NCBI GenBank assembly: GCA_963752285.1
Contig: CAVVXN010000005.1
Coordinates: 992,001 to 1,056,000, forward strand
Direction: 5' to 3'
Origin: an uncultured Planctomycetota bacterium
Lineage (GTDB): Bacteria > Planctomycetota > PLA2 > JAEUHO01
DNA: 64,000 nucleotides
The notes under the pieces are model-generated. The model was given only the letters and a program-made list of their open reading frames with translations, ran no database searches and was not told the origin of the DNA. How positions within the stretch are numbered: the first letter of the stretch is position 1; the number at the start of each line of letters is the position of its first letter. The position numbers and the translations under genes are program-made. Shown piece by piece: positions 19,773 to 60,778 of this stretch.

Positions 19773-19782
19773 GGCGCCCTCC

Positions 19783-27500: not shown

Positions 27501-30500
27501 CGCGAGGAGCCTCGCGAGGACGAGCCCTCCGGGCTCGCCGGGAAGGTCGAGCGGGAGGGTCACGTGCGGCCGCCCCTCGAGGATCCGGCGCACGAACCCG
27601 GAGAGGATCCCGCCGGGACCCGCCTCGACGAACACCCGCGCGCCCGCGTCGTGCATCGCGCGGACCTGCTCTACGAACCGCACGGGATGCGAGAGGTGAC
27701 GCCCCAGCAGCTCCTTCATCGCCACGACGTCGCGCGGGTACGGCTTGGCGGTCACGTTGCTGTGCACCGGGACCGCCGGCGGCCGCATCGCGACCTTCTC
27801 GAGCTCCGGCAGGATCGCCTTCGAGGCCTCCGTGACGAGCGCGGTGTGGAACGCGGCCGACACCGGGACACGCCGGGCCGCGAGCCCACGGGCCGCGAGA
27901 CGGGTGAGGCCCTCGTCCACCGCCGCGCGCGGGCCGGCCACGATCGTCTGGCGGGGCGCGTTCAGGTTCGCGATCTCGAGACCCAGATGCTCCTCGGCGA
28001 GGGCCGCCCGGACCTCGTCCTCGCCGGCCGCGACGGCGATCATCCCGCCCTCGCCCTCGGCGGCGACGTCGTGGACCGCGGCGCCGCGGAGCGCAGAGAC
28101 GACGAGCAGGTCGCGTCGCCCGTACGCGCCGGCGGCGTGGAGCGCGACGTACTCGCCGTACGAATGCCCGGCGGTGAAGGCGGGCCGGAGGCCGAACGTC
28201 GCGAGCACGTCGAGCGCGAAGAGCTCGACCGCGCCGAGCGCGGGCTGGGCGACGCGCGTGTCCTCGAGCTCCTCCCGCCGGCGGCGACGGTCGGCCTTCG
28301 TCCACGCCGGCTGCGGGAACACGTAGGCGGACAGCGGCACCGGCAGCAGGTCGCGCAGGAGGTGGTCGGCCTCCTCGAACACGCTCGTGTCGAACCCGGC
28401 GGTCGTGACGAGGTCGCCGAGCATGCCGATGCGCTGCGCGCCCTGGCCCGGGAACAGGAAGGCGACCTCCTTCGCGCGCGCCGGGGGCGCGTCCGAGAGC
28501 CAGGTCCCGCGCGCCTCGTCGAGGCCCGCCCCCGCGGCGAGCGCCTCACGCGCCCTCGCGAGCGCCGATCGGAGGTCCGAGAGCGAGGACGCCACGACGC
28601 CGAGCCGCGCCGCGTCGGGCCCGTCACGGTCGCGTGCGCGCTCGTCGGCGTGGACCGCGGCGGCCACGCGCGCGAGGGCGCCCTCGGGCAGGCCGGCCGT
28701 CTCGCCCTCGATCCTCGCGACCGCCTCCGCGAGGGCCTCGCGCGTCGGGCGCCCGATCGACACCACCTCGGCGTCGCGCGGCGCGAGGTCCCGCGTCGCG
28801 TCCGGGCAAAACGCGTCCTCGTACGCCTCCAGGACCACGTGGAAGTTCGTCCCCCCGAACCCGAACGCGCTGACGCCCGCGCGGCGCGCCGGGTGGCGCA
28901 CGTCGCGGATCCAGGGCCGCCGCTCGGTGTTCGCGTACACGCGGGAGCCCGCTTCGAGGAGACGCGGGTTCGGGCGCTCCACGTGGAGCGTGGGCGGCAG
29001 CGTGCGGTGCGAGAGCGCCAGCGCCGTCTTCACGAGGCCGGCGAGGCCCGCCGCGGTCTTCGCGTGGCCGATCTGCGACTTCACGGAGCCGATCGCACAC
29101 GTCGGACGCCCGGGACCGAGCACGGCCTGGAGCGACTCGATCTCGGCCGCGTCCCCCACCGCCGTGCCGGTCGCGTGGGCCTCGATCAGCTCGACGGTCG
29201 CCGGGTCCACACCGGCGTCCTCGTACGCACGACGCAGCGCGAGGACCTGCCCCGCGGGATGCGGCGCCGTCAGGCTCCGGTTCCGCCCGTCGCTCGAGGT
29301 CCCGATGCCCCGGATCACCGCGTACACGTCGTCGCCGTCGCGCTCCGCGTCCTCGAGGCGCTTCAGCACGACGGCCCCGACGCCCTCGCCGAGCACGATC
29401 CCGTCCGCGCCGGCGTCGAAGGGGCGCGGCACGTCCCCCGGCGTGAGTGCCTGGGTCTTCGCGAAGCCCATGAACGTGAACGCGTTGTTCGAGCCGTCGG
29501 CCGCGCCGACCACGACCACGTCGGCGACGCGTGACCGGAGCTGTCCCACGGCGGCGTGGAGCGCCGCCAGCGACGACGAGCACGCGGCGTCCACCACGTA
29601 GTTCGCACCCATGAGGTCGAGCCGGTTCGCGATGCGACCGGCGATCAGGTTGGGGAGCACGCCGGGGAACACGTCCTCGGTCCACGGGGGCAGGGCGGCC
29701 CGCACCGATTCGACCGCCCGCCGCCGCGCGTCGTCGCCGAGCGACGATGTGCGGAGGAGGAGCTGCTCGACCATCGTGCGGAACACGTACGAGATGCCCA
29801 GGTCGTGGATCCCGCTCGACCCGAAGATCACGCTCGTCCGCTCGCGCGGGAAGGGATGGCGGTCGAAGCCCGCGTCCTCGAGCGCGCGCCGCGCGGTCTC
29901 GAGCGCCAGGAGCTGCACGGGCTCGAGGTGCGTCACGGTCGCCGGCGGGATGCCGTAGCGCAGCGGGTCGAAGCGGATCGGCTCCAGGAACGCGCCCCGG
30001 CGCGCGTAGAGCCGGTCGGGCGCGCGACGGTCGGGGTCGTAGAAGAGGCTCGGGCTCCATCGCGACTCGGGCACGTCCCGGACCGCGTCCGCGCCCCGGA
30101 GCACGCACGCCCAGAACGAGGCGAGGTCGGGCGCGCCCGGGAAGCAGCACGCCATGCCCACGATCGCGATGCGCTCCCCGCCGCTGCGCCGGCGCGCGCC
30201 GACCGCGAGCGGCACGGCGTGCCGGTGCGTCCACTCGACCGCGCCGCGGGAGACCGCGTCGTGGAGCGCCGCCATCGACTGCCGGCCGTCGCGGAGCGTC
30301 GCGACGTCGCCGAGCATGAACATGCCCTCTCGCCGCTGTTCGGACGAGTCCACGCGCTCGAGCTCGCCCTCGAGGCGTTCGGCGCGGGACGCGAGGTCGT
30401 CGGCCTCCGCGTCGGCTCGCCCGCGGCGTCGGAGTCCCTTCGAGGCGACGCGGAGCCGCCCCACGTTCAGGATCTCCAGGTCCACCCGCACGTCCTCGGC

Positions 30501-32264: not shown

Positions 32265-32425
32265 CGGCGGTCCGCTAGACGCTCCCAAGTGCCTCCCTCG
32301 CCTGCCGGCCCCGGCGACCGAGTGTACCCGCCCCCCCGACCGGCCCGGGTTCAGGCGATGTCGGGGCGGCCTTCCCTTCGGGCCCGGCGGGCGCGGCGCG
32401 ATCATCCCCGGCTCGGGAGACCTCG

Positions 32426-35400
32426 ATGGACACGCGCGTAAGGCAGCGGAAGACCGACCGGATCGAGCAGGTCGTGGCCCAGCTCTCGGAGCGCTGGGAC
32501 GCAGCCGAGCGGGACCAGGTCGAGGCGTTCGTGCGCGCCTTCTACCGCGGCGTCCCGCCCGCCGACGTGGCCGACGCCTCGGCGGAGACCCTCTACGGGG
32601 CGGCGATCGCCGTCTGGCGCTTCTCGGAGCTGAGGGAGCCCGGCCACGCCAAGGTCCGGGTCTACACCCCCACCAGCGACGAGCACGGATGGGACTCGCC
32701 CCACACGGTCGTCGAGATCGTGAACGCCGACATGCCCTTCCTCGTGGACTCCGTTACCGCCGAGCTCCAGCACCTCGACGCGGAGGTGGCGCTCGTGATC
32801 CACCCCCTCCTCGACGTGGCCCGCGACGCCGAGGGCCACCGGGTCGCGATCGGCGAGGCGGCGATGGGCCACCCCGGCGTCCGCCGCGAGTCCTGGATGC
32901 AGATCCAGGTCCGGGCCCAGCCCCATTCCCAGCACGCGGAGATGGCCCGCGCCGTCGAGTCGGCCCTCGCGGACGTCCGCGCGGCGGTCGAGGACTGGGC
33001 GGAGATGCTCGAGCGGACCCACGCGCTGGCCGCGGAGCTCCGGTCGAAGGCCGGCGGCGACGGCGAGGCCGAGGACGCCGCGTTCCTCGAGTGGCTGACC
33101 GAGGACTTCTTCACCTTCCTCGGCTACCGGGAGTACGCCTTCACGCCCCAGGACGGAACGTGGCTCGGCACGGTCCTCGAGCCGACCGGGCTCGGCCTCC
33201 TGCGCGCGAGCGAGGCCCGCGTGTTCGACGGCCTGCTCGGGGGTGGGCTCGTCCCGCCCGACGTCGTCGCCTTCCTCGGCGAACCGGATCGCGTCAGGGT
33301 CACGAAGGCGAACCGGCGCTCCACGGTCCACCGTCCCGTGCTCCTCGACACGATCTCCGTGAAGCGACTCGACGACGAGGGGCGGGTGGTCGGGTGTCAC
33401 GTGCTCGTGGGCCTCTTCGCCTCGCGCGCGTACGCGGCGAGCCCGTGGAACGTGCCGATCCTCCGGCAGAAGGTCGGACGGGTCCTCGCGCGGGCCAACG
33501 TCCCGCCCGACACGCACGACGGGCGCGCGCTGCTCCACATCCTCACGTCGTTCCCGCGCGACGAGCTGTTCCAGATCACGGAGTCCGAGCTCGAGGCGGC
33601 GGCGTTCGGGATCCTCGACCTGCAGGAGCGTCCGCGCATCGCGCTCTTCGCGCGCGCAGACCCGTTCGAACGGTTCGTCTCGTGCCTCGTCTTCGCGCCG
33701 CGCGAGCGGTACGACACGGCGCTCCGGCTGCGCTTCCAGGACGTCCTCACGACCGCGTGGCGCGGGCACATCGCCTCGTACCACACCCAGCTCGACGACT
33801 CGCCCCTGGTCCGCCTGCACTTCACGATCGAGACCACGCCGGGCCAGGTCCCCGTCACCGACGTCACCGAGGTGGAGGACCTCCTCGTCGAGGCGGGGCG
33901 CTCGTGGGGCGACCGCCTCCAGTCCGCGCTCGTCGAGGTGCGCGGCGAGGAGCAGGGCATCCGCTGGTTCCGGCGCTACGGCCAGGCCTTCCCGGCGGCG
34001 TACCGCGAGACGTTTCACGCGCACGAGGCGGTGGCCGACGTCGCACACGTGGAGGCCGCGCTCGCGAACGGCGGGCTCGCGCTGAACCTCTACCGCCCGC
34101 TCGAGGCGCCGGAGCACCTGCTCCACTTCAAGATCTACGCGCTCGGCGCGCCGCTGCCGCTCTCCAACGTGCTGCCCATGCTCGAGAACATGGGGTTCCT
34201 CGTGCTGGGCGAGGAGCCGTACCGCCTCCGCCCGACCGACCTCGACCGGCCCTTCTGGATTCGCGACCTCGTGCTCGAGACGGCGGCTCCGGGGTCGGTG
34301 GACCTCGACCGCGTGCGCGGTCCCTTCCACGAGGCGTTCGCGCAGCTCTGGAAGGGCGAGCTCGAGAACGACGGCTTCAACCGCCTGGTCCTCCTGGCGG
34401 GTCTCTCCGCGCGCGAGGTGACGGTGCTCCGCGCGTACTGCAAGTACCTCCGCCAGGCGCGAATGCCCTTCAGCCAGGCGTACGTGGAGCAGACCCTCTC
34501 CAGCGAGCCCGAGATCGCGAAGCGGCTCGTGGACCTGTTCTACGCGCGACTCGACCCGGAACGACGGGACGGCGGCGCGACCGAGGAGGGCGAGATCGTC
34601 GAGGAGGTACGCCGCCTCCTCGACCGCGTCTCGAACCTCGACATGGACCGCATCATCCGGCGCTATCTCGAGACGATCGGCGCCACCCTGCGGACGAACT
34701 ACTTCCAGCCCGACGCGAGCGGGGCGCCGAAGGCCTACCTTTCGTTCAAGCTCGACTCCCGCCGCATCACGAGTCTCCCGCAGCCGCGCCCGTACCGCGA
34801 GATCTTCGTGTACAGCCCGCGCGTGGAGGCCGTCCACCTGCGGGGCGGCAAGGTGGCGCGCGGCGGGATCCGATGGAGCGACCGTCCCGAGGACTTCCGC
34901 ACGGAGGTGCTCGGCCTCATGAAGGCGCAGATGGTGAAGAACGCCGTCATCGTCCCGGTCGGGTCGAAGGGCGGGTTCTTCGTCAAGCGCCCGCCGGCTC
35001 CCGACGCGGGACGCGAGGCGCTCACCGAGGAGGTGGTCGCCTGCTACCGCACGCTGATGCGCGGCCTCCTCGACCTGACCGACAACCTCGAGGGCGCGGC
35101 CGTACGACCGCCCCTCCACGTCGTCCGGCACGACGAGGACGACCCGTACCTCGTCGTGGCCGCCGACAAGGGGACGGCGACGTTCAGCGACATCGCGAAC
35201 GGGATCTCGTCGGACTACGGGTTCTGGCTCGACGACGCGTTCGCTTCGGGCGGGTCGGCCGGCTACGACCACAAGAAGATGGGCATCACGGCGCGGGGCG
35301 CCTGGGAGTGCGTGCGGCGGCACTTCCGCGAGATGGGCAAGGACATCCAGTCCGAGGACTTCACGGTCGTCGGCGTGGGCGACATGTCGGGCGACGTGTT

Positions 35401-37255
35401 CGGCAACGGGATGCTCCTCTCCGAGCACATCCGGTTGCTCGGCGCGTTCGACCACCGACACGTCTTCGTGGACCCCGATCCCGACCCGGCGGCCTCCCTC
35501 GCCGAACGGCGCCGCCTCTTCGACCTCCCCCGCTCCTCGTGGGAGGACTACGACCGGTCCCGGATCTCGCGCGGCGGCGGGGTGTTCGAGCGGTCCGCGA
35601 AGTCGGTCCCCGTGTCTGCCGAGATGCGCGCGTGCTTCGACATCCAGGCCGACACGGTGACGCCGGCCGAGCTGATGCACGCCCTCCTCGGGGCCGACGT
35701 CGAGCTCCTCTGGCTCGGCGGCATCGGCACCTACGTGAAGTCCACCTCCGAGAGCCACGCCGACGCCGGCGACCGCGCGAACGACGCGATCCGCATCGAC
35801 GCGACGGAGCTCCGCGTCAAGGTCGTCGGCGAGGGCGCGAACCTCGGCCTCACCCAGCGGGGCCGGATCCAGGCGGCGCTCGGAGGGGTCCGGCTGAACA
35901 CGGACGCGCTCGACAACTCGGCCGGCGTGGACTGCTCGGACCACGAGGTGAACATCAAGATCCTGCTGGGCGAGGTCGAGCGGGCCGGCGAGATCACGCG
36001 CACGCAGCGCGACCACCTGCTCCACGAGATGACCGACGAGGTCGGCGAGCTGGTGCTGCGCGACAACGACCTCCAGTCCCAGGCCCTGAGCGTGGCCCAG
36101 CAGAAGGGCGTCGCCGGGCTCGACCCCGTGGGTCGGTTCATGCGCGCGCTCGAGAAGGAGGGCCGCCTCGACCGGGCGCTCGAGTTCCTGCCGAGCGACG
36201 AGACGCTCGCGGAGCGCCTGAAGAACCGCGTGGGCCTGACGAGACCCGAGCTCGCCGTGCTCCTCGCCTACGCGAAGATCGTGCTCTACGACGAGCTCCT
36301 CGCCTCGTCCCTGCCCGACGACCCGTGGATGGCCGAGGAGCTCGCGCACTACTTCCCACGGCCGCTCCGGGAGGCGCACGGCGCCGCGATCCCGCGACAC
36401 CGTCTCCGCCGCGAGATCGTGGCGACGGTGGTGACGAACGCGATGCTCAACCGCGTGGACCTGACGTTCGTCCACGACGCGAAGGAGAAGACGGGTCTCC
36501 CGGCCGCGGACGTGGCACGCGCGTGGCTCGCGGCCCGGGACGTCTTCGACCTGCCCGCCGTCTGGCGCCAGATCGAGGACCCCGAGATGGCGATCCCCGC
36601 CGCGGTCCAGGCCGAGATGCTCGCCGAGACCTCCCGCCTCCTCGAGCACGCGGTGCTCTGGATGGCCCAAAACCTCCCCCGCCCGCTCGACGTGCCGGCC
36701 ACCGTGGCCTCGTACGGCGCGGGCGTGCGCGAGCTCTCGGACCACCTGGACGCGCTCCTTCCGGAGTCGCACCGGCACGACCGCGACCTCCGCGCGATCC
36801 GGTACGTCGAGCGCGGCGCGCCGCGGGGCCTCGCCGAGCGCGTCGCCGGCCTCGAGGCCCTCGAGCCCGCGTGCGACGTCGTGCGCATCGCCGCGGCCGC
36901 CGAGGTCAGCGTCCAGCGCGCGGCCGAGGTCTACTACGCGGTCGGCGAGGCGTTCGGCTTCGACTGGCTTCACCGGGTCGCCGCCCGCCTGCCCGCGGAC
37001 TCCTCGTGGGAGAAGCTCGCGGTCCTCGCGCTCGGCGACGACCTCTACGCGCACCAGGGCGCGCTGACCACGAGCGTGCTGCTCGTGCCCCCCGACGACC
37101 TGCCCCCCGCCGAGGCCATCCGGCGCTGGACGGAGGGCCGGGAGGCGATCGTCGAGCGCACGAGGCGGCTCCTGCAGGAGCTCGAGACCGCGGCGCGGCC
37201 CGACCTCGCGATGGTCGCGGTCGCCGCGCGTCACCTCAAGGGGATGGCGGGCTGA
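32426..37255 (+). CDS. gdhB: Large NAD-specific glutamate dehydrogenase
   Basis: DMPFLVDS, HLRGGKVARGGIRWSDR, KAQMVKNAVIVP, VVAADKGTATFSD, GYDHK, DCSDHEVNIKI; 1609 aa. Confidence 0.96.
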   Translation: MDTRVRQRKTDRIEQVVAQLSERWDAAERDQVEAFVRAFYRGVPPADVADASAETLYGAAIAVWRFSELREPGHAKVRVYTPTSDEHGWDSPHTVVEIVNADMPFLVDSVTAELQHLDAEVALVIHPLLDVARDAEGHRVAIGEAAMGHPGVRRESWMQIQVRAQPHSQHAEMARAVESALADVRAAVEDWAEMLERTHALAAELRSKAGGDGEAEDAAFLEWLTEDFFTFLGYREYAFTPQDGTWLGTVLEPTGLGLLRASEARVFDGLLGGGLVPPDVVAFLGEPDRVRVTKANRRSTVHRPVLLDTISVKRLDDEGRVVGCHVLVGLFASRAYAASPWNVPILRQKVGRVLARANVPPDTHDGRALLHILTSFPRDELFQITESELEAAAFGILDLQERPRIALFARADPFERFVSCLVFAPRERYDTALRLRFQDVLTTAWRGHIASYHTQLDDSPLVRLHFTIETTPGQVPVTDVTEVEDLLVEAGRSWGDRLQSALVEVRGEEQGIRWFRRYGQAFPAAYRETFHAHEAVADVAHVEAALANGGLALNLYRPLEAPEHLLHFKIYALGAPLPLSNVLPMLENMGFLVLGEEPYRLRPTDLDRPFWIRDLVLETAAPGSVDLDRVRGPFHEAFAQLWKGELENDGFNRLVLLAGLSAREVTVLRAYCKYLRQARMPFSQAYVEQTLSSEPEIAKRLVDLFYARLDPERRDGGATEEGEIVEEVRRLLDRVSNLDMDRIIRRYLETIGATLRTNYFQPDASGAPKAYLSFKLDSRRITSLPQPRPYREIFVYSPRVEAVHLRGGKVARGGIRWSDRPEDFRTEVLGLMKAQMVKNAVIVPVGSKGGFFVKRPPAPDAGREALTEEVVACYRTLMRGLLDLTDNLEGAAVRPPLHVVRHDEDDPYLVVAADKGTATFSDIANGISSDYGFWLDDAFASGGSAGYDHKKMGITARGAWECVRRHFREMGKDIQSEDFTVVGVGDMSGDVFGNGMLLSEHIRLLGAFDHRHVFVDPDPDPAASLAERRRLFDLPRSSWEDYDRSRISRGGGVFERSAKSVPVSAEMRACFDIQADTVTPAELMHALLGADVELLWLGGIGTYVKSTSESHADAGDRANDAIRIDATELRVKVVGEGANLGLTQRGRIQAALGGVRLNTDALDNSAGVDCSDHEVNIKILLGEVERAGEITRTQRDHLLHEMTDEVGELVLRDNDLQSQALSVAQQKGVAGLDPVGRFMRALEKEGRLDRALEFLPSDETLAERLKNRVGLTRPELAVLLAYAKIVLYDELLASSLPDDPWMAEELAHYFPRPLREAHGAAIPRHRLRREIVATVVTNAMLNRVDLTFVHDAKEKTGLPAADVARAWLAARDVFDLPAVWRQIEDPEMAIPAAVQAEMLAETSRLLEHAVLWMAQNLPRPLDVPATVASYGAGVRELSDHLDALLPESHRHDRDLRAIRYVERGAPRGLAERVAGLEALEPACDVVRIAAAAEVSVQRAAEVYYAVGEAFGFDWLHRVAARLPADSSWEKLAVLALGDDLYAHQGALTTSVLLVPPDDLPPAEAIRRWTEGREAIVERTRRLLQELETAARPDLAMVAVAARHLKGMAG

Positions 37256-40841: not shown

Positions 40842-42124
40842 CACAGCTCCTCCAGGAAAGCCAGGAGGTCGTCCTGGTCCGCGGCCGCGAGGGCCAGGAA
40901 CGCGTTCCTCGACGCCAGGGCCTCCCCGCCGTGGAGGACGACCGCCTCGCGCAGGGTGTCGGCCCGCCCGTCGTGCAGGTAGGGCGCGTGCATCGACACG
41001 CCCCACAGCGGCTGCGTCCTGAACTCGGACCCCGTGGTCGAGCCGTCGTTCGCCGAGGTCTGGGGCACGCCGAAGCTGATGCCGTCCGCGAGGTCCGGTC
41101 CCATGTCGTGCAGAAGGAGGTCGGTGTACGGCTGGATCGCCCCGCGCGGCGTTGGGAGCGACGGCACGTGGCACGCGACGCAGCCGGCCTCCTGGAAGCG
41201 CGCGGACCCGCGCGTGCCCCGCGCGTCGAGCACGGGCGTCGGCGGCGGAGCGAGGAACCGCCCGAACAGGACGAGGTCCGAGAGGTCCTGGGCGCCGAGC
41301 TCGGGGTCCTGAACGCCATCCTGGTCGATGGTCGGGTCGTTGGGGTTCGCCGAGACCTGACCGGTGCCGGGCGGAGGGATCGGCTTCGGCGAGGCGACCA
41401 ACGGGTTCGTCGTGATCCCCATCTGGTTCTGGAGCGGGCCGCGCGTGAACCGCTCGATCGTCGAGGACTGGCACTTGACGCCGAGGCGGCCGAGGTCGCC
41501 GGCGTCCGTGTTGTAGCGGCCGCTGATCCCGTCTCGGTCCAGGTCGTCGGGGTCCGCGCGCGACACGATGTCGCTCTCGGGGACCATCTCGAACAGGCCG
41601 ACCCCGAACACGGGGAGCGCGTTTCGCTGCGCGGACACCACGGGGAACCCGAGGTACGTGTCGGGGAGCGGCGTCCGCCCGCCGGTCAGGCTGAAGGTCG
41701 ATGTCGGATGCGTGGCGCCGGTCCCGTACGCGGGGATCACGGGTCCGAGGAACGGCGGCAGGGGCTGGAGCGAGCCGGAGAAGCCGTACTTCGCGAGATA
41801 GAAGTTCCGGTACCGCTTCGAGGATCCGCCCGGCATCGGCGTGCTGTGGCAGGAGGCGCAGGCGGTGGCGTTGTAGAACGGCCCGAGTCCCTCGCTCGGC
41901 CGGAACCGACGGACGAACACGGCCCGGCCGCGCTCGAACGCCTGCTGCTCGGCGGCGGTGAGTCCCGGGATGGGGTCCCCGAGCTTCTGGGCCGGCGTGG
42001 GCGGGACCGTGGGGACGGCTCCACCGCCGCCCCCGCCGCAGCCCCCGAACACGGCCGCTGCCAGGACTGCCGCCCCGAGCGCGAGTCGCCGTGCGTACGT
42101 CGCTGTCGAACAGGTGCCGGGCAA
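40841..42124 (-). CDS. Di-heme oxidoreductase (DHOR) family lipoprotein
   Basis: GLGPFYNATACASCH, DRDGISGR, GCVACH, YTDLLLHDMG, RTQPLWG, YLHDGRA; FGGC lipobox; TTG start after AGGAG. Confidence 0.9.
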   Translation of the reverse strand: MPGTCSTATYARRLALGAAVLAAAVFGGCGGGGGGAVPTVPPTPAQKLGDPIPGLTAAEQQAFERGRAVFVRRFRPSEGLGPFYNATACASCHSTPMPGGSSKRYRNFYLAKYGFSGSLQPLPPFLGPVIPAYGTGATHPTSTFSLTGGRTPLPDTYLGFPVVSAQRNALPVFGVGLFEMVPESDIVSRADPDDLDRDGISGRYNTDAGDLGRLGVKCQSSTIERFTRGPLQNQMGITTNPLVASPKPIPPPGTGQVSANPNDPTIDQDGVQDPELGAQDLSDLVLFGRFLAPPPTPVLDARGTRGSARFQEAGCVACHVPSLPTPRGAIQPYTDLLLHDMGPDLADGISFGVPQTSANDGSTTGSEFRTQPLWGVSMHAPYLHDGRADTLREAVVLHGGEALASRNAFLALAAADQDDLLAFLEEL

Positions 42125-42248
42125 GGGCGACTCTCCTGAACACCGGGAGTATCCCCGGCGGGGCCCCCGGTGGCAATCGGGAGACCGCCGAACCGTCACG
42201 TCGGGGGGGGCTCCCGAGGCCCGCGTCGGTATCCTCGCCCGCATCCGC

Positions 42249-43048
42249 ATGGGCTGGCGATGGCGATTCCTGAGACCCCGCCTTCCCGGACCCGTGGTCC
42301 GGGCGATCTACCGTGCGTACGAGCGGGGGCTTCTCGAGGAAATCCGCCGCCTCCCCGTCCCCGGTCACGTCGGCTTCATCATGGACGGGAACCGCCGACA
42401 CGCCCTCGCCCAGGGGCGCCTCCCCTGGGAGGGCCACCGTCTGGGCTCGGACACGGTCGAGGCCCTGGTCGAGTGGGGGCGCGAGATCGGGGTCCGCACG
42501 ATGACCCTCTACGCCTTCTCGACCGAGAACTTCCAGCGTCCGGACGAGGAGGTGAGCACCTTGATGGCGCTCTTCGCGCACCGCCTCGCGGATCTCGCCG
42601 TGGACCCGCGCATCCTCGACCACCACGTGCAGGTCCGGGTCCTCGGGCGCACGGAGATGCTCCCCCCCGAGGTCCTGGAGGCGATCCACACCGTCGAGAC
42701 GGCGACCGAGTCGTTCGACGCATACCGGCTGAACTTCTGCATCGCGTACGGCGGGCGACAGGAGATCCTCGACGCCGTCCACCACATCCTCGAGAAGATC
42801 GAGCGGGGCGAGCTCGACCGGGGCAACGTGGACGAGCACGTGTTCGGCCAGCACCTGTACACGGGCGGCGACGACCCCGACCTGATCATCCGCACGGGGG
42901 GGAGTCGCGGCTCAGCAACTTCCTCCTCTACCAGGCCGCGTACTCCGAGCTCTACTTCACGGACGTCTACTTCCCCTCCTTTCGTCGCATCGACTTCCTT
43001 CGCGTCATCCGGGACTACCAGCGTCGCCGGCGCCGCTACGGCCGCTGA
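42249..43048 (+). pseudogene. uppS: cis-prenyltransferase (UppS family) with a 1-base frameshift in a G7 run; may be an intact gene with a sequencing error
   Basis: One frame has [38 protein letters not shown]. Another frame continues [19 protein letters not shown]...RRYGR. The switch is at 42896-42902. Confidence 0.88.
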
Positions 43049-43170
43049 GCCCAGGCCCGACCCGGGGCCTCCGACCCATTGCCGGCGCGCGCGGCGAGGC
43101 GCAGGCTCTCGCCCACGCGAGACGCCGGCCCGCGTGACGAGAGGCCAGGTCGGCGCGGAGGAAGACCCCG

Positions 43171-43566
43171 ATGAACCGTCAGCAGGTGTACGACGAGATC
43201 CAGGCGACCTTGGGCGTGCTGCCCGGCTTCCTGAAGCAGCTCCCCGACACGACCCTGGAGCTCGAGTGGAAGCTCCTCGTCCGCAGCCAGATGGACCCCG
43301 GGCCGATCCCGAACAAGTACCGCGAGCTGATCGGGCTCGGGATCGCCGCCACGACGAAGTGCCGCTACTGCGTCTACTTCCACACGGAAATGGCGAAGCT
43401 GAACGGCGCGAGCGACGCCGAGATCGAGGACGCCATCCACTACGCGAAGTCCTCCGCGGGCTGGAGCGCCTACCTGAACGGGAGCCAGATCGAGTACGAC
43501 GAGTTCACGCGCGAGATCGACCAGGCCGTGGCGTACGTTCGCGAGCAGATGTCGGCGACCGCCTGA
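43171..43566 (+). CDS. Carboxymuconolactone decarboxylase / AhpD-family protein
   Basis: KYRELIGLGIAATTKCRYCVYFH (CxxC plus His). Confidence 0.9.
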   Translation: MNRQQVYDEIQATLGVLPGFLKQLPDTTLELEWKLLVRSQMDPGPIPNKYRELIGLGIAATTKCRYCVYFHTEMAKLNGASDAEIEDAIHYAKSSAGWSAYLNGSQIEYDEFTREIDQAVAYVREQMSATA

Positions 43567-43720
43567 GCCGTTCGGACCCACCGCACGCGCCACGCGCGGC
43601 GGCAGCACGATCTGGTAGCCGGCGATCCACCCGCGGGGGCCGCCGTCCGGAACGACGGAAGCGGTCCTTCGCCCGCGCGAGGCGCCGAATGGGACGCGCC
43701 GGGCGACGGCCCCCGTCGGC

Positions 43721-45340
43721 GTGGCGTCGGGCCTGGGATTTGCCTCCGACCCTGGGATCCGAGGAGGATCCCCCATTCGCCCCCGACGCCTCCTGTTCGG
43801 GACGGTACTGGCACTCCTGCTCGGCTGCGGCGGCCGCGACGCCCCGCGCGGTGGGCGCGCGTACGACCCGGACGGCCGCCTCCTCGTCGAGCGCCCCCGC
43901 CCGGCGCACCTGCCGAACCTCCTCGTCATCGTGCTCGACGCCGTGCGGGCGGACGCCCTGCCGCCCTTGAACGAGACGAGCGAGTCGCCCACGCGCATGC
44001 CGTTCTACGCCTCGCTCGCCGACCGCGGCGTGCGCTTCACGAACGCCTCCTCGGCGGCGAGCTGGACGCTGCCGTCGATGATGAGCCTCCTGACCGGGCT
44101 CCTCCCGAGCGACCACGGCCAGGTGGACCTCGTGGCCGACTGGAGCATGCCGGCCGCCGTCACCACGTTCGCCGAGGTGCTGAGCGCGGGCTACGGATAC
44201 GAGACCGCCGCCTTCGTGAACGGGAACTGGTTCAAGCGCTCGGGGGACAGCCTGCTCCAGGGGTTCGCGACGCGCTCGCCGATGTTCGCGCTCCGGGACG
44301 TGTCGGGACGCGTCCGCCGTTGGAACCGCGACCGCGACAAGGCACGCCCGTTCTTCCTGGTCCTCCACACGTACGAGGCGCACGATCCCTACGGCGAGCG
44401 GAACCACCCCTGGCCGCCGGTGCCCATCGAGCACCGGACGATCGACCCCGCGCTCCTCGCCGAGGGCGCGGATCCCGCGGAGGTCTTCCGGCGCTGCTAC
44501 CTCGACGCGGACACCTCCATGGAGCTCGGCCTCACCTGGGGCCCACGCCTCGGGAGCCTGCTCCAGCGCTACAAGTTCAGGGGCTACGCCGAACATCCGC
44601 GCCCCGACATCGCCGCCGAGCTCGAGGCGGCGTACTGGAACGGTGTCTCGTGGGTGGACGGGCTCCTCGAGCGGGCCTGGACGGAGCTCGAGCACGACGG
44701 GCTCCTCGACGACACGCTGGTGGTGGTGACGGCGGACCACGGCGAGGCGTTCGGCACGCACGGGAACCTTGCGCACGGGCTCTACCTCTACGACGAGCTC
44801 GTCCACGTCCCCTTGGTGATGATCGGTCCGCCCCCGTTCTCGGGCGGGCGGCTCGTCACGGAGGAGGTCGGGCTCGTGGACGTGCTCCCGACGTTCCTCG
44901 ACTGGGCCGGCCTGGCGCCCCTCGAGCCCTCCAATGGTCGTTCCGCCCGTTCGCTCGTCGAAGGGGGGAGCTGGTGCCGTCCCGTGGTCAGCGAGGAGCG
45001 GCTCACGAGCACGAGCACGGGAACGCCGGTGGACGCGTGGCGGATCTCGGCGCGCACGGAGAGGTGGAAGTACATCGCCACGTTCCACCTGGACACCGGA
45101 CACGTGGCCGAGGAGGCCTATGACCTCTGGTTCGACCCGGACGAGAGGGACGACCTCGCCAAGGGAACGGGTCTCCTGCCCTCGGAGCAGGTGTTCGACC
45201 CGTGCCTCTGCGCCGCGATGGAGGCCGTCCGTGGCCGCATCTGGCACACGGTGGCCGGGGACGACGCGGCGCCCCTGCCGGACGTCGCGGCCCCCGGCGG
45301 CGCGGGCCCGCGTCCTACGCCCTGTCGCTCGACCCCCTGA
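43721..45340 (+). CDS. Sulfatase-like lipoprotein, paralog B
   Basis: PNLLVIVLDAVRAD, WTLPSMMSLLTG, HTYEAHDPY, TADHGEAFG; LLGC lipobox. Start approximate. Confidence 0.88.
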   Translation: MASGLGFASDPGIRGGSPIRPRRLLFGTVLALLLGCGGRDAPRGGRAYDPDGRLLVERPRPAHLPNLLVIVLDAVRADALPPLNETSESPTRMPFYASLADRGVRFTNASSAASWTLPSMMSLLTGLLPSDHGQVDLVADWSMPAAVTTFAEVLSAGYGYETAAFVNGNWFKRSGDSLLQGFATRSPMFALRDVSGRVRRWNRDRDKARPFFLVLHTYEAHDPYGERNHPWPPVPIEHRTIDPALLAEGADPAEVFRRCYLDADTSMELGLTWGPRLGSLLQRYKFRGYAEHPRPDIAAELEAAYWNGVSWVDGLLERAWTELEHDGLLDDTLVVVTADHGEAFGTHGNLAHGLYLYDELVHVPLVMIGPPPFSGGRLVTEEVGLVDVLPTFLDWAGLAPLEPSNGRSARSLVEGGSWCRPVVSEERLTSTSTGTPVDAWRISARTERWKYIATFHLDTGHVAEEAYDLWFDPDERDDLAKGTGLLPSEQVFDPCLCAAMEAVRGRIWHTVAGDDAAPLPDVAAPGGAGPRPTPCRSTP

Positions 45341-48609: not shown

Positions 48610-49701
48610 CTACATGACCCCTGCGACGCGTGCCGGGCGCCGACCCATCTCGCGCAGCCAGCGCAGATGGGAGCGGAGCGCACGATAGCACGAGCGGTTC
48701 ACGCGGTACCGCACACCATGGTCCCGGCACGTCTGGGCCACGATCGTCGCGAGCGCGGGATAGTGGACGTGGCTCACGTGCGGAAACAGGTGGTGCACGG
48801 CCTGGTAGTTGAGGCCGCCGAGGTACCAGGTCGTGACGGGGCTTCCCGGCGCGAAGTCCACCGACGTGTTGAGCTGATGGACGGCCCACTCGGTGGACGA
48901 GCCGGCGGGCGTCGGGACCTCGGGAAAGTCGGCCTCTTCCACACAGTGGGCCAGCTGGAAGACGACCGTGAGGGTGAGACCGGTCGCGACCTGCATCGTG
49001 AGGTGGAACAGGAGACCGATCGCCCAGCCGTGCGCGATCACCGGCAGGACGAAGGACCACGTGAAGACGAAGGCCTTGCCCCCCAGGAAGTACAACCACT
49101 CCCGACCGCGCGGCCGCGGGAGCCTGTGCGCTCCGATCTTTCCGGTCGCGATGTTGTAGAAGTCGTCGAACCAGACCCACTTCACCCCGAAGAGGGCGTA
49201 GAGCAGCCACACGTACACGTGCTGGAACCGGTGGAAGAACAGCCAGCGCTGGCCCGGCGCCAACCGAAGGAGCGCCCCCGCCTCGATGTCCTGGTCGATC
49301 CCGACCAGGTTGGGGTACGTGTGGTGGACCACGTTGTGCTTGAGCCGCCAGATGTGCGAGCTCCCTCCGATGAGGTCGAGCACGCGCGCCAGCATGCGGT
49401 TCACGCCGGGCCGTGACGAGTAGGCGCCGTGGCTCGCGTCGTGCATCACGCAGAACCCGAGGCCCGCGAGGCCGAACGAGGAGACGAGCGCGCAGGCGAC
49501 CGTGACGAGGACTCCTCCCGGGCCGAACATGAAGAACGCCCAGGCCCCCGCCATCACGAGGCCGATCACGATGGACTTCGCCCACAAACGGGGTCCGCCG
49601 AAGGGCGAGCGGCCCGATTCGTCGAAGTACCGCGCCACACGCGCACGCAGGTCTCGATAGAGCGGGGCACCGGCCTGGAACTGAACACGAGCGTCGTGCA
49701 A
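48610..49701 (-). CDS. Membrane fatty acid (acyl-CoA) desaturase
   Basis: His boxes HDASH, HNVVHH and QAVHHLFP; GGLNYQ. Probable TTG start at 49701. Confidence 0.92.
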   Translation of the reverse strand: MHDARVQFQAGAPLYRDLRARVARYFDESGRSPFGGPRLWAKSIVIGLVMAGAWAFFMFGPGGVLVTVACALVSSFGLAGLGFCVMHDASHGAYSSRPGVNRMLARVLDLIGGSSHIWRLKHNVVHHTYPNLVGIDQDIEAGALLRLAPGQRWLFFHRFQHVYVWLLYALFGVKWVWFDDFYNIATGKIGAHRLPRPRGREWLYFLGGKAFVFTWSFVLPVIAHGWAIGLLFHLTMQVATGLTLTVVFQLAHCVEEADFPEVPTPAGSSTEWAVHQLNTSVDFAPGSPVTTWYLGGLNYQAVHHLFPHVSHVHYPALATIVAQTCRDHGVRYRVNRSCYRALRSHLRWLREMGRRPARVAGVM

Positions 49702-49898
49702 CTCGGTACTCCGGGGACCGTCGCCCGCGGATCCCCCCTCGGGGACCGGACGGCGATGGACCGGGGAAGAGCGTAGCAGCCGGGGAGGAGGTCCCGGGTC
49801 TTTGAAATCGGCGTCGAGGGCCGACCCGATTCCGGACGCGCGTCCCCCACCGGGGCAGCGGCGTGTCGCCGCGCCGGTTCTCGGGCTCCGCCCGGCCC

Positions 49899-50186
49899 CT
49901 ACTTGCGCTTCGTCTTGCGCTTCGGCTTGAGGCCGCGACCGGCGAGCATCTTGCGCACCCGCGCGCGGTGCTGGGCGGGCGTGAGCGACGCCCAGTAGCT
50001 GCGCTGACCCGCGCTCAGGCTCGCGGGAGTTGCCCGGCCCGCGCCGCGTCCCTTGCCCGACTTCGCGGCGCTCGACTTGGCGTTCGCGATCGCCTTCGAG
50101 CTCTCTTCGACGAGGTCGTTCACCGCTTCGAGTAGCTGATGCACCGCGTTCTCGATTCGCTTCGCGTGGTTCTTGCGTCGGGCCAT
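49899..50186 (-). CDS. Small Lys/Arg-rich protein, possible nucleoid-associated protein
   Basis: 95 aa; amphipathic N-terminal helix, basic linker and tail; purine-rich RBS. Confidence 0.65.
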   Translation of the reverse strand: MARRKNHAKRIENAVHQLLEAVNDLVEESSKAIANAKSSAAKSGKGRGAGRATPASLSAGQRSYWASLTPAQHRARVRKMLAGRGLKPKRKTKRK

Positions 50187-50369
50187 GGGATCTCTCTCTC
50201 CGAGTAGGTCTGGGGCGGATCCTACCAGCGGTTCGGGTGATGGGGCGCATCAAACGAGGGTCGAGCATCCTCGGAACGTCGAATCACGCTCCGTCAAAGA
50301 GGGTCTCGCGAGGCGAATCAGGGAATCCGATTGCCTCCCGGCAGCCCGGTGAAGGGTATTGTCAGCCAG

Positions 50370-55317: not shown

Positions 55318-55788
55318 TCAGGACCGTTGGCGAAGCGCCTCCAGGACGTGGCGCGGGTGCTCGCCCGCGTCGCTCACGCGCTTCCAGTGCTTCACGACCT
55401 TCCCGTCGGGCCCGATCCAGACCGTCGAGCGGATGACGCCGGTGGTCTTCTTGCCGTAGAGCGTCTTCTCGCCCCACGCGCCGTACGCCTGCATCACCTC
55501 ATGCGTCGGATCGGAGAGCAGCGGGAAGGGGAGCTCGTGCTTCTCGGCGAACCGCTGGTGCGAGTCGGCGCCGTCCGGCGACACGCCGAGCACCACGGCC
55601 CCCGCCGCCTCGATGTCCTTCGTGAGGTCGCGGAAGCACTGCGCCTCCTTCGTGCAGCCGGGCGTGTCGTCCTTGGGGTAGAAGTAGACGATCACGTCCT
55701 TCCCCGCGTAGTCCTTCACCGCGTGCTTCACGCCCTCCGCGTCGGGGAGCGAGAACGCAGGCGCCTTCCGGCCTTCCTCGATGGGCAT
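55318..55788 (-). CDS. bcp: Thioredoxin-dependent thiol peroxidase (BCP/PrxQ)
   Basis: YFYPKDDTPGCTKEAQCFRD, FPLLSD, GVIRSTVWIGPDG. Confidence 0.95.
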   Translation of the reverse strand: MPIEEGRKAPAFSLPDAEGVKHAVKDYAGKDVIVYFYPKDDTPGCTKEAQCFRDLTKDIEAAGAVVLGVSPDGADSHQRFAEKHELPFPLLSDPTHEVMQAYGAWGEKTLYGKKTTGVIRSTVWIGPDGKVVKHWKRVSDAGEHPRHVLEALRQRS

Positions 55789-56078
55789 CGCGGGCTCCTC
55801 CGATGAGTCGCGGCGGGATGCTACCAGCGCCGTCCGGACGCCGTGCCACCGGACCCTCCGGCTCCCACCTCGTCTCGGGCCAGACGACACGACGCGGTCG
55901 GCCGACGGGGCCGCCGCTCGCGGAGCCGTGGACCGCGCGCCGCATGTTCGGGCCCGCCCGGCCGGAGCCGACCCCCGGTCGGCCATGCCGGACGTGGGGC
56001 GCACCGCGGTCGAGACGCGCGCGAACCGGACCCTCCGGCGGTCGAGCGCCTCCGCCTCGGCCCCGACCGGCCCGGCGT

Positions 56079-57668: not shown

Positions 57669-59030
57669 GTGGCCCCGCGCCGTGCTCGGAGACGGCGAGG
57701 GTCGGCCGTGCTTACGCTCGCCCTGGTGCTCGCAACCGTCCTGACGTCCGGCGTCGGCGCGACGGCCGGCGCCCGCGTGGCCGATCTCCGCCTCCAGCTC
57801 CTCACGGCCGACGGCGGGCGGTCCGAGATCGAGATCGACCGCGCCGTTTGCCGGGACGCCGAGGCGCGCGCGGCCGACGGGGGAGAGCCGCGTCTGCGTC
57901 TCGCGCTTCGGCCGGGTGACGCGCTGGTCCTTCACACCGCCGACGCGAGGGCCATCGCCGCGAACGTGCGCGTGCACGTCCCCGACCCGGTTCCACCCGT
58001 GCTGACGGGCGTCGTGCCGGCCCGCGACCACCCGGCGCTCTCGAACCTCGTGCTCCAGGTCGTGGACGAGGACGGCCCGCTCCCCGGAGCCGCTCTCGAC
58101 TGGGGCGAAACGGACGACCCCTCGCCCACGACGCGCGCCGACGCGGAGGGGCGGATCGTCGTCGCGGCGCGGCCCGCGATGAAGGGCACGCCGACGGAGC
58201 CGCCGCTGCGCCGCTATCTCGCTACGGAGTGGTGCGTGCACGCGCCGGGTCACACGGCCTCGACACGGCGCCCCCTCGCCCTCCCGGTCTACGACGACGT
58301 GGCCGGCGCGGCCTGGCTTGCGACGGGGCGCTACCCGGTCCTCCTCGCCCGCCGAACGGGCCCGCAAGCCGGGAACGAGCGCGCGATCCACGTCGTGGAC
58401 GCACGCTGGCATCCGGTGCCCTTCGCACGCGTGGACGTCGTGTTCCCCGCCTTGCCCGAGGTCGTGACGCTCGGCGCGTACGATGCCGTGCGCGACGGCT
58501 TCCGGCGCACGGACGAACACGGTGTGGCGGAGGTACCGGTCCCCCTTTCGGTGGGGCTCCAGGTGCGCGTCGGCGGTGCGCCGGTCGCCACGTTCGGCCT
58601 CGCGGACGCGGCGTGGCCCCCGAGGGCGCTCGGCCCGCGCGACCTTCGCCTGCCGGAGCTCGCGGACGCGACGCTCGTGATCGACGACGTTCCGGCGGAC
58701 GCGACCGCGCAGCTCTGCGCCGGAGCGGGGACGGGCGACCGGACCGCGGTCGCCCCCGCCTCCACGACGCTCGACGCCGAGGCGCGGGACCTCCTCGGCG
58801 AGAACGGCTGCGTATTCCCCTTCTGGCTCTGCGGCCCGAGGCCCATCCTCGCGTCGCCCCGGACGACGCTTCAAGTGAACCTCGCCGTGGGCCGGCCCAC
58901 GTCGCTGCTCCTCGACGCCAGGACGGGGCGCCGGCGGTGGACCGTGGCGCCCGATCACGGCGGCCCGTGGCGCGCCACGGCGCGCTGGTCGGACCTGCCG
59001 CAGCGCGACGGAGCGCCGAACACCCGTTAG
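57669..59030 (+). CDS. Hypothetical exported protein
   Basis: 3' part of ORF 56640..59030; signal-like segment; two VVD..G.P...A.V...TD..G beta-sandwich-like patterns. Confidence 0.55.
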   Translation: MAPRRARRRRGSAVLTLALVLATVLTSGVGATAGARVADLRLQLLTADGGRSEIEIDRAVCRDAEARAADGGEPRLRLALRPGDALVLHTADARAIAANVRVHVPDPVPPVLTGVVPARDHPALSNLVLQVVDEDGPLPGAALDWGETDDPSPTTRADAEGRIVVAARPAMKGTPTEPPLRRYLATEWCVHAPGHTASTRRPLALPVYDDVAGAAWLATGRYPVLLARRTGPQAGNERAIHVVDARWHPVPFARVDVVFPALPEVVTLGAYDAVRDGFRRTDEHGVAEVPVPLSVGLQVRVGGAPVATFGLADAAWPPRALGPRDLRLPELADATLVIDDVPADATAQLCAGAGTGDRTAVAPASTTLDAEARDLLGENGCVFPFWLCGPRPILASPRTTLQVNLAVGRPTSLLLDARTGRRRWTVAPDHGGPWRATARWSDLPQRDGAPNTR

Positions 59031-59084
59031 CGATCGGGCGACTGCGGGACGCTGGCGGCCGGACGGACCGGTCCGGATGCGCGT

Positions 59085-59702
59085 TCAAGGGACGTGCGCG
59101 AGCGTCTCGTCCACCGAGGGTCGGTCCACGATTCGGTCGCCGACGACGCGCCAGAGGACGCGCCGTTCGCCGTCGAGGACGAACGTCGCCGGCAGCGCGG
59201 AGTCCTTGCCCTCCTGGCGCACACCGTAGGCCGCGGCGAGGCGGAGGTCGGTGTCGCTGACCAGGGGAAAGGCGAGACCGAGCTTCTTCGCGAGGTCGGC
59301 CGCCTGCTCGGGCGTGTCGGCGCTGACCGCCACGAGCCGGGCGCCCGCGGCCTCGATCCGTCCCCGCTGGTCCTGCAGCCCGCCGAGCTGCTTGCGGCAC
59401 CAGGGTCACCAGTGCCCGCGATAGAAGACGACGATGGTGGGCGTTCCCGGCTTCATGCCCTCGACGTCCGGTGCGAGGTCCCCCACCGCCAGCGGCTCGT
59501 CGCGCGCCGCGAGGACCCGCTTCCCGACCTCGGCCTCGACCGCCGGGTCGATGCGCTCGCGGTACGGCGGTGACGAGGGCGCGACCGCCGGCGAGGCGCC
59601 CTCGCCCGTCCCCTTGCCGCAGCCGACGAGCGACAGCCCGAACGCCACGAGCGCCACGAACGCAGCGGGGAAGGGAACGAGCCGGGTCGTCAAGGCGCCC
59701 AC
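59085..59702 (-). CDS. Peroxiredoxin-like (AhpC/TSA) lipoprotein, probable selenoprotein (in-frame UGA at 59406-59408)
   Basis: ORFs 59406..60122 and 59085..59333 share a frame. Read-through gives VVFYRGHW-U-PWCRKQL...VAVSAD...FPLVSD...PATFVLD. LVGC lipobox. Start approximate. Confidence 0.85.
59367..59403 (-). promoter_or_regulatory. Putative bacterial SECIS element
   Basis: Just 3' of the UGA: lower stem CUGGU/ACCAG and upper stem GCAGCUC-GGC-GGGCUGC. Confidence 0.6.
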
Positions 59703-60154
59703 CGGGTCGAAGCGTAGCCGGGGTGTCGGGGCGAGGGGCTGCTGCCGGGCACGACACGCGAGGTCCCCGCGTGTCCACGACGCCGGGACCGTCGGACCGT
59801 GGGGAGGAAGGAGGATCGGACGCCCGGAGGCGTCCGCTCGCCTCCGTGGCGCGTACGCCCTCGACGCGGTCGCACTTCGCGAGCCCCTCTCCCGCGCTCG
59901 TCCCGCTCGCGAGCGTCGCCATCCTGCTGGCGCTCTACCTCCACCCGGTCTCCGCATACCTCCACCTCCTCTGATTCCCGATCGAGGCCAAAGCGACGAC
60001 CGAGCCCGCGCTCGACTCGGCGCTGCTCCGCGGGCGCGGCCCCCGCGTGCCTCCCCCGCGGAATCGAGGCCGGAACGGCCCCCGAGGGGCGTTACGCGAC
60101 CTGTGGACCTGAATATCCTCAATACGAACCGACCCCTTAGTCGATCGGGAATAT

Positions 60155-60778
60155 GTGAAGACCTCGCGGACTCCGTCCCGCTCCCGCGGGGGGCGAGTCC
60201 CCGGGCGGGACACCCGACCTGGGGCCGCCCCGGTGGCCGGTTCCGCGAGCCTCACACGAACTCTCTACGAACCGCGGTCACGTGCGGCTCCGCCTCTCGA
60301 TCCGGCGCTGCCGCGGTCCCCGGCCCGCCGCCTGACCGCGGGCTTCACCCTGCTCGAGCTGCTCGTCGTGACCGGGATCATCTCGATCCTGGCGTCGATG
60401 GCGATCCCCTCGTTCCAGCAGGCGCTCGGGATCGCCCGACAGACGCGTGCGGTCCAGGAGCTCCGGGCGCTCTCCCGCGACATCGACGCGTACCTGATCC
60501 GGAACGGTGCGCTCCCGGACGCTCTCGCCGACGTGGGCCGCGCGTCGCTTCGTGACCCGTGGGGCCACCCCTACGCGTACCTGCGCATCGACGGCGGCAA
60601 GAAGGGGAACGGCCAGGTACGCAAGGACCACAATCTCGTCCCGCTCAACACCGACTACGACCTCTACAGCATGGGCCCCGACGGGAAGAGCGTCTCGCCC
60701 TTGACGGCCGCGCAGAGCCGGGACGACGTCGTGCGCGCCCAGAACGGCGAGTTCTACGGGCCGGCGTCCGGGTACTGA
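60155..60778 (+). CDS. Prepilin/GspG-like pseudopilin
   Basis: G|FTLLELLVV cleavage motif, DPWGHPYAY, DYDLYSMGPDG. True start may lie downstream. Confidence 0.88.
   Translation: MKTSRTPSRSRGGRVPGRDTRPGAAPVAGSASLTRTLYEPRSRAAPPLDPALPRSPARRLTAGFTLLELLVVTGIISILASMAIPSFQQALGIARQTRAVQELRALSRDIDAYLIRNGALPDALADVGRASLRDPWGHPYAYLRIDGGKKGNGQVRKDHNLVPLNTDYDLYSMGPDGKSVSPLTAAQSRDDVVRAQNGEFYGPASGY

Follow-up and report, generated by a model that had tools for sequence, protein, structure and literature searches.

Does the TGA at positions 59406-59408 terminate a gene, or does it lie within one? The question arises in a stretch of 64,000 nucleotides (64 kb, hereafter the window) from an uncultured Planctomycetota bacterium (contig CAVVXN010000005.1, positions 992,001 to 1,056,000 of the forward strand), on the minus strand of which the triplet stands exactly where a peroxiredoxin-like (Prx-like) protein would be expected to carry a catalytic cysteine. 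Our answer, to which we attach a probability of roughly 85%, is that 59088-59702(-) forms a single intact gene and encodes a Prx-like selenoprotein of 205 residues, of Pfam family PF00578 with a UxxC motif (U, selenocysteine, Sec), and we hold with the same confidence, from the sequence comparisons that follow, that the TGA probably encodes Sec.

Calling of open reading frames (ORFs) with translation table 11 delivers two that share a frame, 59406-60122(-) and 59085-59333(-). When TGA is translated as U, 59085-59702(-) becomes an uninterrupted frame of 205 residues: the internal TGA, with cac tgg before it and ccc tgg tgc after it (H-W-U-P-W-C), takes the place of the first Cys in an FYRGxW-C-PxC motif. 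The initial annotation had taken the two ORFs to be a single frame broken by one TGA at the catalytic Cys, and both the single translation and the alignments with homologs bear it out. The Pfam AhpC-TSA domain runs across the TGA, and G+C content at third codon positions (GC3) is 0.93 before it and 0.97 after it. When every TGA of the window was considered in all six frames, this one alone had 40 stop-free codons of coding composition on both sides. Translation probably starts at GTG 59702, with TTG 59693 (M-T-T-R-L...) as the alternative; a scan of 58900-60250 returned no promoter-like site, and a terminator-like site upstream of the gene at 60148-60129(-). No NCBIfam model reaches its cut-off on the protein, and annotation pipelines would therefore split the gene, as had been foreseen from the pair of table 11 ORFs. 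Standard annotation would thus split or truncate it, and the correct call adds one selenoprotein to the genome.

Evidence as to what belongs at the TGA came firstly from homologous proteins. A search of a large protein collection returned 305 homologs, of which 25 were aligned for a count at the TGA column: 24 have Cys and one has Trp (W), and when 121 sequences are aligned, Cys makes up at least 90% of the column. The in-frame UGA is thus aligned with a conserved catalytic Cys. The single W belongs to the nearest relative, P0002, a protein 67% identical to that of the window and derived from a contig of 1193 nt. P0002 contains five Trp, three of which align with Trp of the window protein and two with the internal and the terminal TGA of the window gene; it continues past the position of the terminal stop. 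The simplest reading is that P0002 is a mistranslation, with TGA taken as Trp, of a gene that appears to have TGA at the same codon: a W at the position of the window's true stop points to use of the wrong table and not to biology.

The relationship between Sec and Cys forms was explored with a tree from a quick tree search only, rooted at the midpoint, which covers 57 sequences: the window protein and the 56 best BLAST hits. The window protein groups with P0002 (support 99), followed by L070 (Sec), P0006 (Cys), L051 (Sec) and a Cys clade of 15 members. The Sec/Cys label requires at least seven changes on this tree, four of them forced by well-supported branches. Switching between Sec and Cys is, by its title and abstract, the theme of PMC1794560.

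Evidence of a second kind came from genomes in which the same TGA recurs. A scan for F-[YF]-R-G-x-W-TGA-P-x-C across 185,579 species genomes returned at least 120 loci, where about two would be expected by chance if equal base frequencies are assumed. All statements about these loci concern the matches listed. Among them, all read through the TGA and match the window protein with an expectation value (E) below 1e-5, the best being L070 (Polyangium sp., 4e-35) and L040 (a metagenome-assembled genome, MAG, of Polyangiaceae, 2e-34). In most of them the frame goes on for some 100 codons or longer, and in the few where it is short it is cut off by the edge of the locus or by an early stop (L095, L105). 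The same codon is therefore UGA, with an open frame behind it, in orthologs from Acidobacteriota, Gemmatimonadota, Poribacteria, Dehalococcoidia, Myxococcota, several proteobacterial classes and other phyla. The initial annotation had proposed an alignment of homologs at this site as a check on Cys or UGA: the outcome is Cys in nearly all of the aligned proteins and UGA in every one of the listed relatives, which are homologous throughout and drawn from many phyla. The motif with its TGA is accordingly a property of at least 120 species genomes.

Evidence of a third kind lies in the company that some of these genes keep. In the listed loci, 1.27 Mb in all, ARAGORN recognised 12 tRNA genes, four of which are tRNA-Sec, and in the same four loci (L017, L027, L028 and L057, from Beta-, Alpha- and unclassified proteobacterial MAGs) selB stands beside the TGA gene. 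The first three also contain selA; L057 shows the C-terminal part of selB, at which point the locus ends. The order in L017 is selA, selB, tRNA-Sec and then, within 200 nt, the Prx-like gene. In some Proteobacteria, then, the TGA gene lies directly beside selA-selB-tRNA-Sec, and such linkage speaks directly for TGA as a Sec codon in the Prx-like family. As an observation in its own right, L027 has a gene for an 'AhpD-related (seleno)protein' (NF041238) between selA-selB-tRNA-Sec and the Prx-like gene; its match ends together with the frame, at profile position 238 of 357, and this gene too may be interrupted by a Sec codon.

A further line of evidence is the RNA structure behind the codon. The selenocysteine insertion sequence (SECIS) criterion set out in the relevant part of PMC1088965 asks for a stem-loop that follows the UGA immediately and has a G in its small apical loop. 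Behind the window's TGA, after 14 nt, comes an upper hairpin at 18-34 (positions counted from the U of the UGA) with the loop GGC, which a lower stem extends to 4-45. We asked which registers are kept across 121 UGA-anchored sequences of 45 nt, comprising the listed matches and the window. The strongest local hairpin has its loop starting at 24-25 in 44 of them, and 23, among them the window, have precisely the 18-34 hairpin; in another 44 the loop starts at 20, with AGUU(G/A) at 20-24. By eye, a third register with a UGGAU-type loop at 23-27 can also be seen.

Two groups were then formed by loop letters only, and pairs were counted within each. The 18-34 register (loop GGN at 25-27; 24 sequences including the window) has 95.8% of its cells paired, with changes on both sides in four of seven pairs, and a covariation score of 0.331; the mean for shuffles is 0.109, none of 500 shuffles reaches the observed score, and slid partners score at most 0.064. 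The 14-30 register, in 56 sequences, has 79.8% of cells paired, both-side changes in all six pairs and a score of 0.693 against 0.240 for shuffles. Sequences that are kin can surpass shuffles without any structure, for which reason the slid controls are the fairer comparison, and their scores lie well below that observed. Behind one and the same codon, the Prx-like family thus has two or more hairpin registers that covary.

The constraint can also be seen when the protein sequence is held fixed. Synonymous codons were resampled from each gene's own usage, and the 15 codons behind the TGA were found to fold 3 kcal/mol better than the resampled versions (mean z -1.16), with z below zero in 101 of the 121 genes (Wilcoxon p 2e-15; one run evaluated 120 of the 121, one frame behind the TGA being too short). 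Five control stretches of the same genes gave mean z values of -0.15 to -0.42. For the window alone z was -2.9 and -2.55, and not one of 100 resamples was as stable. The SECIS-like hairpin noticed at the outset is therefore backed by a register kept in relatives with compensatory changes and by the synonymous-codon controls.

Several observations weigh against this interpretation, and we set them down together. The source genome is not among the matches listed. ARAGORN found no tRNA-Sec in the window, and Pfam searches of its 26 + 23 ORFs found no SelA, SelB or SelD; when the window was searched by tblastn with selA and selB from L017 and L028, a single match resulted, with an E of 0.2. The fold energy of the window's own hairpin is at chance level: against dinucleotide shuffles the element has z = -0.69, with 50 of 200 shuffles (at 74% G+C) folding as well, and a longer stretch has z = +0.85. 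A control stretch of the window gene 20 codons further on gave z -3.05 under synonymous resampling, as strong as that behind the TGA. Part of the hairpin coincides with the codons of Q-L-G-x-L-Q, a stretch that is palindromic in itself, and no Cys-form site (G-x-W-TGY-P-x-C) that could serve as a control for the hairpin occurs in the 1.27 Mb of listed loci or in the window. At gathering thresholds Rfam has no match in the whole window; its matches around the TGA are at chance level (E 1.1-4.2), and we judge Rfam uninformative for bacterial SECIS elements. Since fold energy is not exceptional in the window, support for the hairpin comes from the relatives; and since single-gene resampling is not specific, it is the family result that carries weight. 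As to the machinery, a correct call predicts selA, selB, selD and tRNA-Sec elsewhere in the genome.

Of the competing explanations the one that survives best, improbable as we consider it, is that the gene is a pseudogene or the product of a sequencing or assembly error: a recent change of TGC or TGT to TGA at the catalytic codon, with a 98-residue fragment, or nothing, being made. Cys codons are but one base from TGA, Cys forms stand near the window protein in the quick tree, and the window, as said, is without Sec machinery. Set against these points is the fact that the nearest relative, P0002, appears to have TGA at the very same codon; L070 and L040, the next nearest genome relatives among the matches listed, have it too. 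Identity with P0002 is 72/106 behind the TGA and 18/29 in the part of the domain before it; being no lower behind the TGA, it indicates that the downstream part is under the same constraint as the upstream part. There are no further stops or frameshifts, GC3 remains high, and the register of the hairpin is common to 23 other TGA-bearing genes.

Less probable still is a recoding of the UGA as something other than Sec (Trp, Cys or Gly), by a suppressor tRNA or a variant code, with a full-length but selenium-free product. The record of P0002 with W at this site and the lack of a tRNA-Sec in the window would both fit. TGA, however, terminates 17 of the 19 Pfam-supported genes of the window, the selenoprotein gene included, and there is therefore no genome-wide reassignment of TGA; the W of P0002 recurs at the window's true stop, which points to a wrong table. 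Moreover, the column is that of the catalytic Cys of homologs, which neither Trp nor Gly could replace, and members of the family adjoin selA-selB-tRNA-Sec. The outcome of table 11 ORF calling, in which a small lipoprotein that ends at 59406 and an independent protein of 82 residues from GTG 59333 are encoded by separate genes, can scarcely be entertained: neither piece would be a complete thioredoxin fold, the Pfam domain and a confident structural model cross the junction, and all full-length homologs are single chains.

We return, then, to the gene as a Prx-like selenoprotein, and to the nature of its active site. An AlphaFold2 model built with 121 aligned sequences has a predicted local distance difference test score (pLDDT) above 94 for residues 70-205, and places U99 directly before a helix at 100-111. 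The best matches of this model in Foldseek are peroxiredoxins: Bcp4 (3hjp, E 2e-11), BcpB (5epf) and AhpE (4x1u; template modelling score 0.80 normalised to the target), with E ranging from 2e-11 to 7e-10. The best sequence match in the PDB is likewise a peroxiredoxin, BCP (2cx3, E 1.2e-10). A true peroxiredoxin is recognised by a P-x-x-x-[TS]-x-x-C active site and a conserved catalytic Arg. The alignment with 2cx3 keeps neither the motif nor the Arg: 'PAAFSPVC' corresponds to 'RGHWUPWC', the peroxidatic Cys falls on Cys102, and the Arg of 'KRAVF' falls on Pro171. We therefore rejected an assignment to the peroxiredoxins proper. Alignment with ResA (3c71, E 2.2e-9) puts W-U-P-W-C opposite W-C-P-H-C and L-P-A-T-F opposite L-P-T-T-F. 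Pro171 thus occupies the site of the peroxiredoxin catalytic Arg and, as far as the alignments can tell, resembles the cis-Pro found in thioredoxin-like oxidoreductases; the predicted centre is a thioredoxin-type U-x-x-C in a Prx-like fold, not a true peroxiredoxin active site. The description as peroxiredoxin-like given in the initial annotation consequently stands for the AhpC/TSA domain and the Prx-like fold, and needs amending for the active site, which is thioredoxin-like in its UxxC and in having Pro171 in place of Arg.

The amino terminus raises the separate matter of where the protein resides. A lipobox has the consensus [LVI][ASTVI][GAS]C, and a script combining hydropathy with a lipobox pattern flags a signal segment in the window protein. 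The stretch following Cys28 is rich in Gly, Ser, Pro and Ala and is modelled as disordered, with pLDDT near 50 over residues 1-45. About 15 of the 25 aligned homologs, P0002 included, show by eye a Cys at the corresponding position behind a hydrophobic N-terminus. The 5′ end is complete in 103 of the 121 TGA-bearing sequences (the listed loci and the window); 48 of these 103 have a hydrophobic N-terminal segment, and eight match a crude lipobox pattern, among them the window, L070 and L040. The lipobox that had been noticed, LVGC after a hydrophobic stretch, is thus present and recurs in relatives. It counts against a lipoprotein that the assignment, a signal peptide ending in a lipobox Cys, is a match to a pattern only. 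The same script found no signal peptide in the members linked to selA and selB. We consider the chances evenly divided that the window protein, P0002 and the Polyangia proteins of L070 and L040 are lipid-anchored, extracytoplasmic Prx-like selenoproteins.

A search of the literature, judged mostly by title and abstract, found no description of a lipoprotein form in the Prx-like selenoprotein family. The portions of PMC2398784, PMC1088965 and PMC13188914 that concern the family give no lipoprotein or exported form, and in PMC13188914, a review of 2026, the words lipoprotein, signal peptide and periplasm do not occur. Selenoproteins that are exported, in part with lipoprotein signal peptides, are described in the preprint 10.1101/2022.07.06.499078; they belong to other families. 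If the anchored form is real, the cytoplasmic membrane of this high-G+C bacterium would bear a selenylsulfide redox centre on its outer side, and the anchored form would make a convenient case in which to ask what selenium offers a redox protein outside the cytoplasm.

How might such a protein be made and what might it do? We infer Sec insertion in the source organism, export and lipidation, and propose the following course. UGA codon 99 would be read as selenocysteine, the hairpin lying 14-31 nt behind it (upper stem 59375-59391, with its G-rich apical loop) recruiting SelB with Sec-tRNA(Sec) to the ribosome. The precursor would be exported, cleaved before Cys28 and lipidated there, at the lipobox LVGC, to give a mature form of 178 residues; a tether of 40 residues rich in Gly, Ser, Pro and Ala would hang the domain outside the cytoplasmic membrane. 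Sec99 and Cys102 could then form a reversible selenylsulfide before the first helix of the thioredoxin-fold domain, and from this we propose that the protein may act as a thiol-disulfide oxidoreductase, or as a reductant of oxidised thiols, and not as a classical peroxiredoxin. The features on which this proposal draws are collected in Table 1.

Table 1. Features of the probable Prx-like selenoprotein gene, in window coordinates; hairpin positions are counted from the U of the UGA.
Feature	Position	Strand	Remarks
Selenoprotein coding sequence	59088-59702	-	205 codons, probable GTG start at 59702; one frame with TGA=U
Predicted lipoprotein signal peptide	59622-59702	-	residues 1-27: Arg7, hydrophobic L8-V26
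Lipobox L25-V26-G27-C28	59619-59630	-	pattern match only; Cys28 the putative lipidated first mature residue
AhpC/TSA (thioredoxin-fold) domain	59157-59447	-	Pfam, residues 86-182, E 2.7e-24
Predicted selenocysteine codon U99, in-frame TGA	59406-59408	-	only internal stop; Cys column in homologs
SECIS-like element	59364-59405	-	positions 4-45, -20.3 kcal/mol
Upper hairpin	59375-59391	-	positions 18-34; loop GGC at 25-27
Cys102 (TGC), resolving partner in U-P-W-C	59397-59399	-	invariant among 25 homologs
Pro171 in L-P-A-T-F	59190-59192	-	invariant among 25 homologs; at least 90% in 121
Terminal stop TGA	59085-59087	-	ends the 205-codon frame

The genes next to the selenoprotein gene encode a hypothetical secreted protein, a pilin like that of type II secretion system protein G (T2SS-G) and a HAMP-GAF-HD protein; they have nothing in common with the neighbours of L070 (Rieske, STAS, ClpB-like and DUF1501), while around L040 a composition filter left no ORFs to compare. 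At a distance of 3.3 kb, 55321-55800(-) encodes a Cys-type Bcp/PrxQ peroxiredoxin (…YFYPKDDTPGCTKE…; AhpC-TSA E 9.3e-40) containing ...PKDDTPGCTKE.... Alongside the UxxC form, then, the genome possesses a classical peroxidase from the same Pfam family. Redox and sulfur genes are found also at 40844-45337, where a di-haem oxidoreductase/peroxidase (DHOR), a CMD/AhpD-like protein (43138-43563, +) and a sulfatase are encoded; by a test of flanking composition these contain no in-frame TGA.

Other features of the window touch the selenoprotein less closely. A frame of 2731 codons at 24561-32753(-) has an NMO-type enoyl reductase together with ketosynthase, acyltransferase and ketoreductase domains, and resembles a polyketide synthase (PKS) or polyunsaturated fatty acid synthase. 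ARAGORN's call of an 88-nt 'tRNA-Pro(CGG)' at 31646-31733(-), with the anticodon at position 38, is probably false: it lies in DNA of 80% G+C inside the long stop-to-stop frame of the PKS-like gene, its T arm is weak and its anticodon stem mismatched, and Rfam finds no tRNA in the window. A GTTCGA motif and a position upstream of that frame's first Pfam domain point the other way. A fatty-acid desaturase (48613-50283(-)) and a sulfotransferase (18519-19844(-)) are likewise present. Finally, 32279-37252(+) encodes a large NAD-glutamate dehydrogenase, the nearest relatives of which, among 5.8 billion proteins, are 75-76% identical over the catalytic domain and come from Thermoanaerobaculia, other Acidobacteriota and Rhodospirillales; with none above 76%, that collection holds no close sequenced relative of the organism.

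It remains to place the window protein among known systems. The peroxiredoxins of the BCP/PrxQ and AhpE groups (2cx3, 3hjp, 5epf and 4x1u) are its closest matches in both structure and sequence, but it does not preserve the Prx signature: Sec99 replaces the Thr or Ser, Arg95 the Pro four residues before it, and Pro171 the catalytic Arg. The active site is rather like that of ResA, TlpA and CcmG (DsbE), in which W-C-P-x-C and the 'P-[AT]-T-F' strand align with the window protein. These proteins are membrane-tethered outside the cytoplasm, and in this too the predicted location of the window protein is like theirs. It differs from ResA in having Sec for the first Cys and in a fold closer to Prx; Pfam searches of the window ORFs found no cytochrome-maturation genes near the selenoprotein gene, and the NCBIfam models for ResA, DsbE and TlpA were rejected, with scores of 38.9 against a cut-off of 170, 25.8 against 123.15 and 20 against 230. 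The best NCBIfam match is to SelL-related redox protein (NF040769; E 3.7e-14, residues 86-163), also rejected at 52.7 bits against a cut-off of 120. SelL itself is called 'a Prx-like protein' in the part of PMC2398784 that treats it.

The nearest counterpart is a family that has already been described. Table 2 of PMC2398784 has the entry 'Prx-like 1, pfam00578, UxxC', for which it counts 225 selenoproteins and 2,740 Cys homologs in samples from the ocean, and a table in PMC13188914 has 'Prx-like thiol:disulfide oxidoreductase, PF00578, UxxC, UxxU', 'predicted with high confidence', a phrase that we take to denote a family without a biochemical test, the passage concerned being silent on the point. 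AhpC/TSA-like selenoproteins, on whose existence the initial annotation had relied, are thus established in print as a Prx-like PF00578 UxxC family. As far as the passages on this family in PMC2398784, PMC1088965 and PMC13188914 go, its members and the window protein have in common PF00578, a UxxC motif with Sec first, and many Cys homologs, and in the genes the UGA is followed at once by a SECIS hairpin whose small apical loop contains G. The window protein combines PF00578 with U99-P-W-C102, and we regard it as equivalent to the published family because of the Pfam family, the motif and the presence of a Geobacter member (L047) among the listed loci. The window gene is therefore a member of the Prx-like selenoprotein family described since 2004, and not the founder of a new one.

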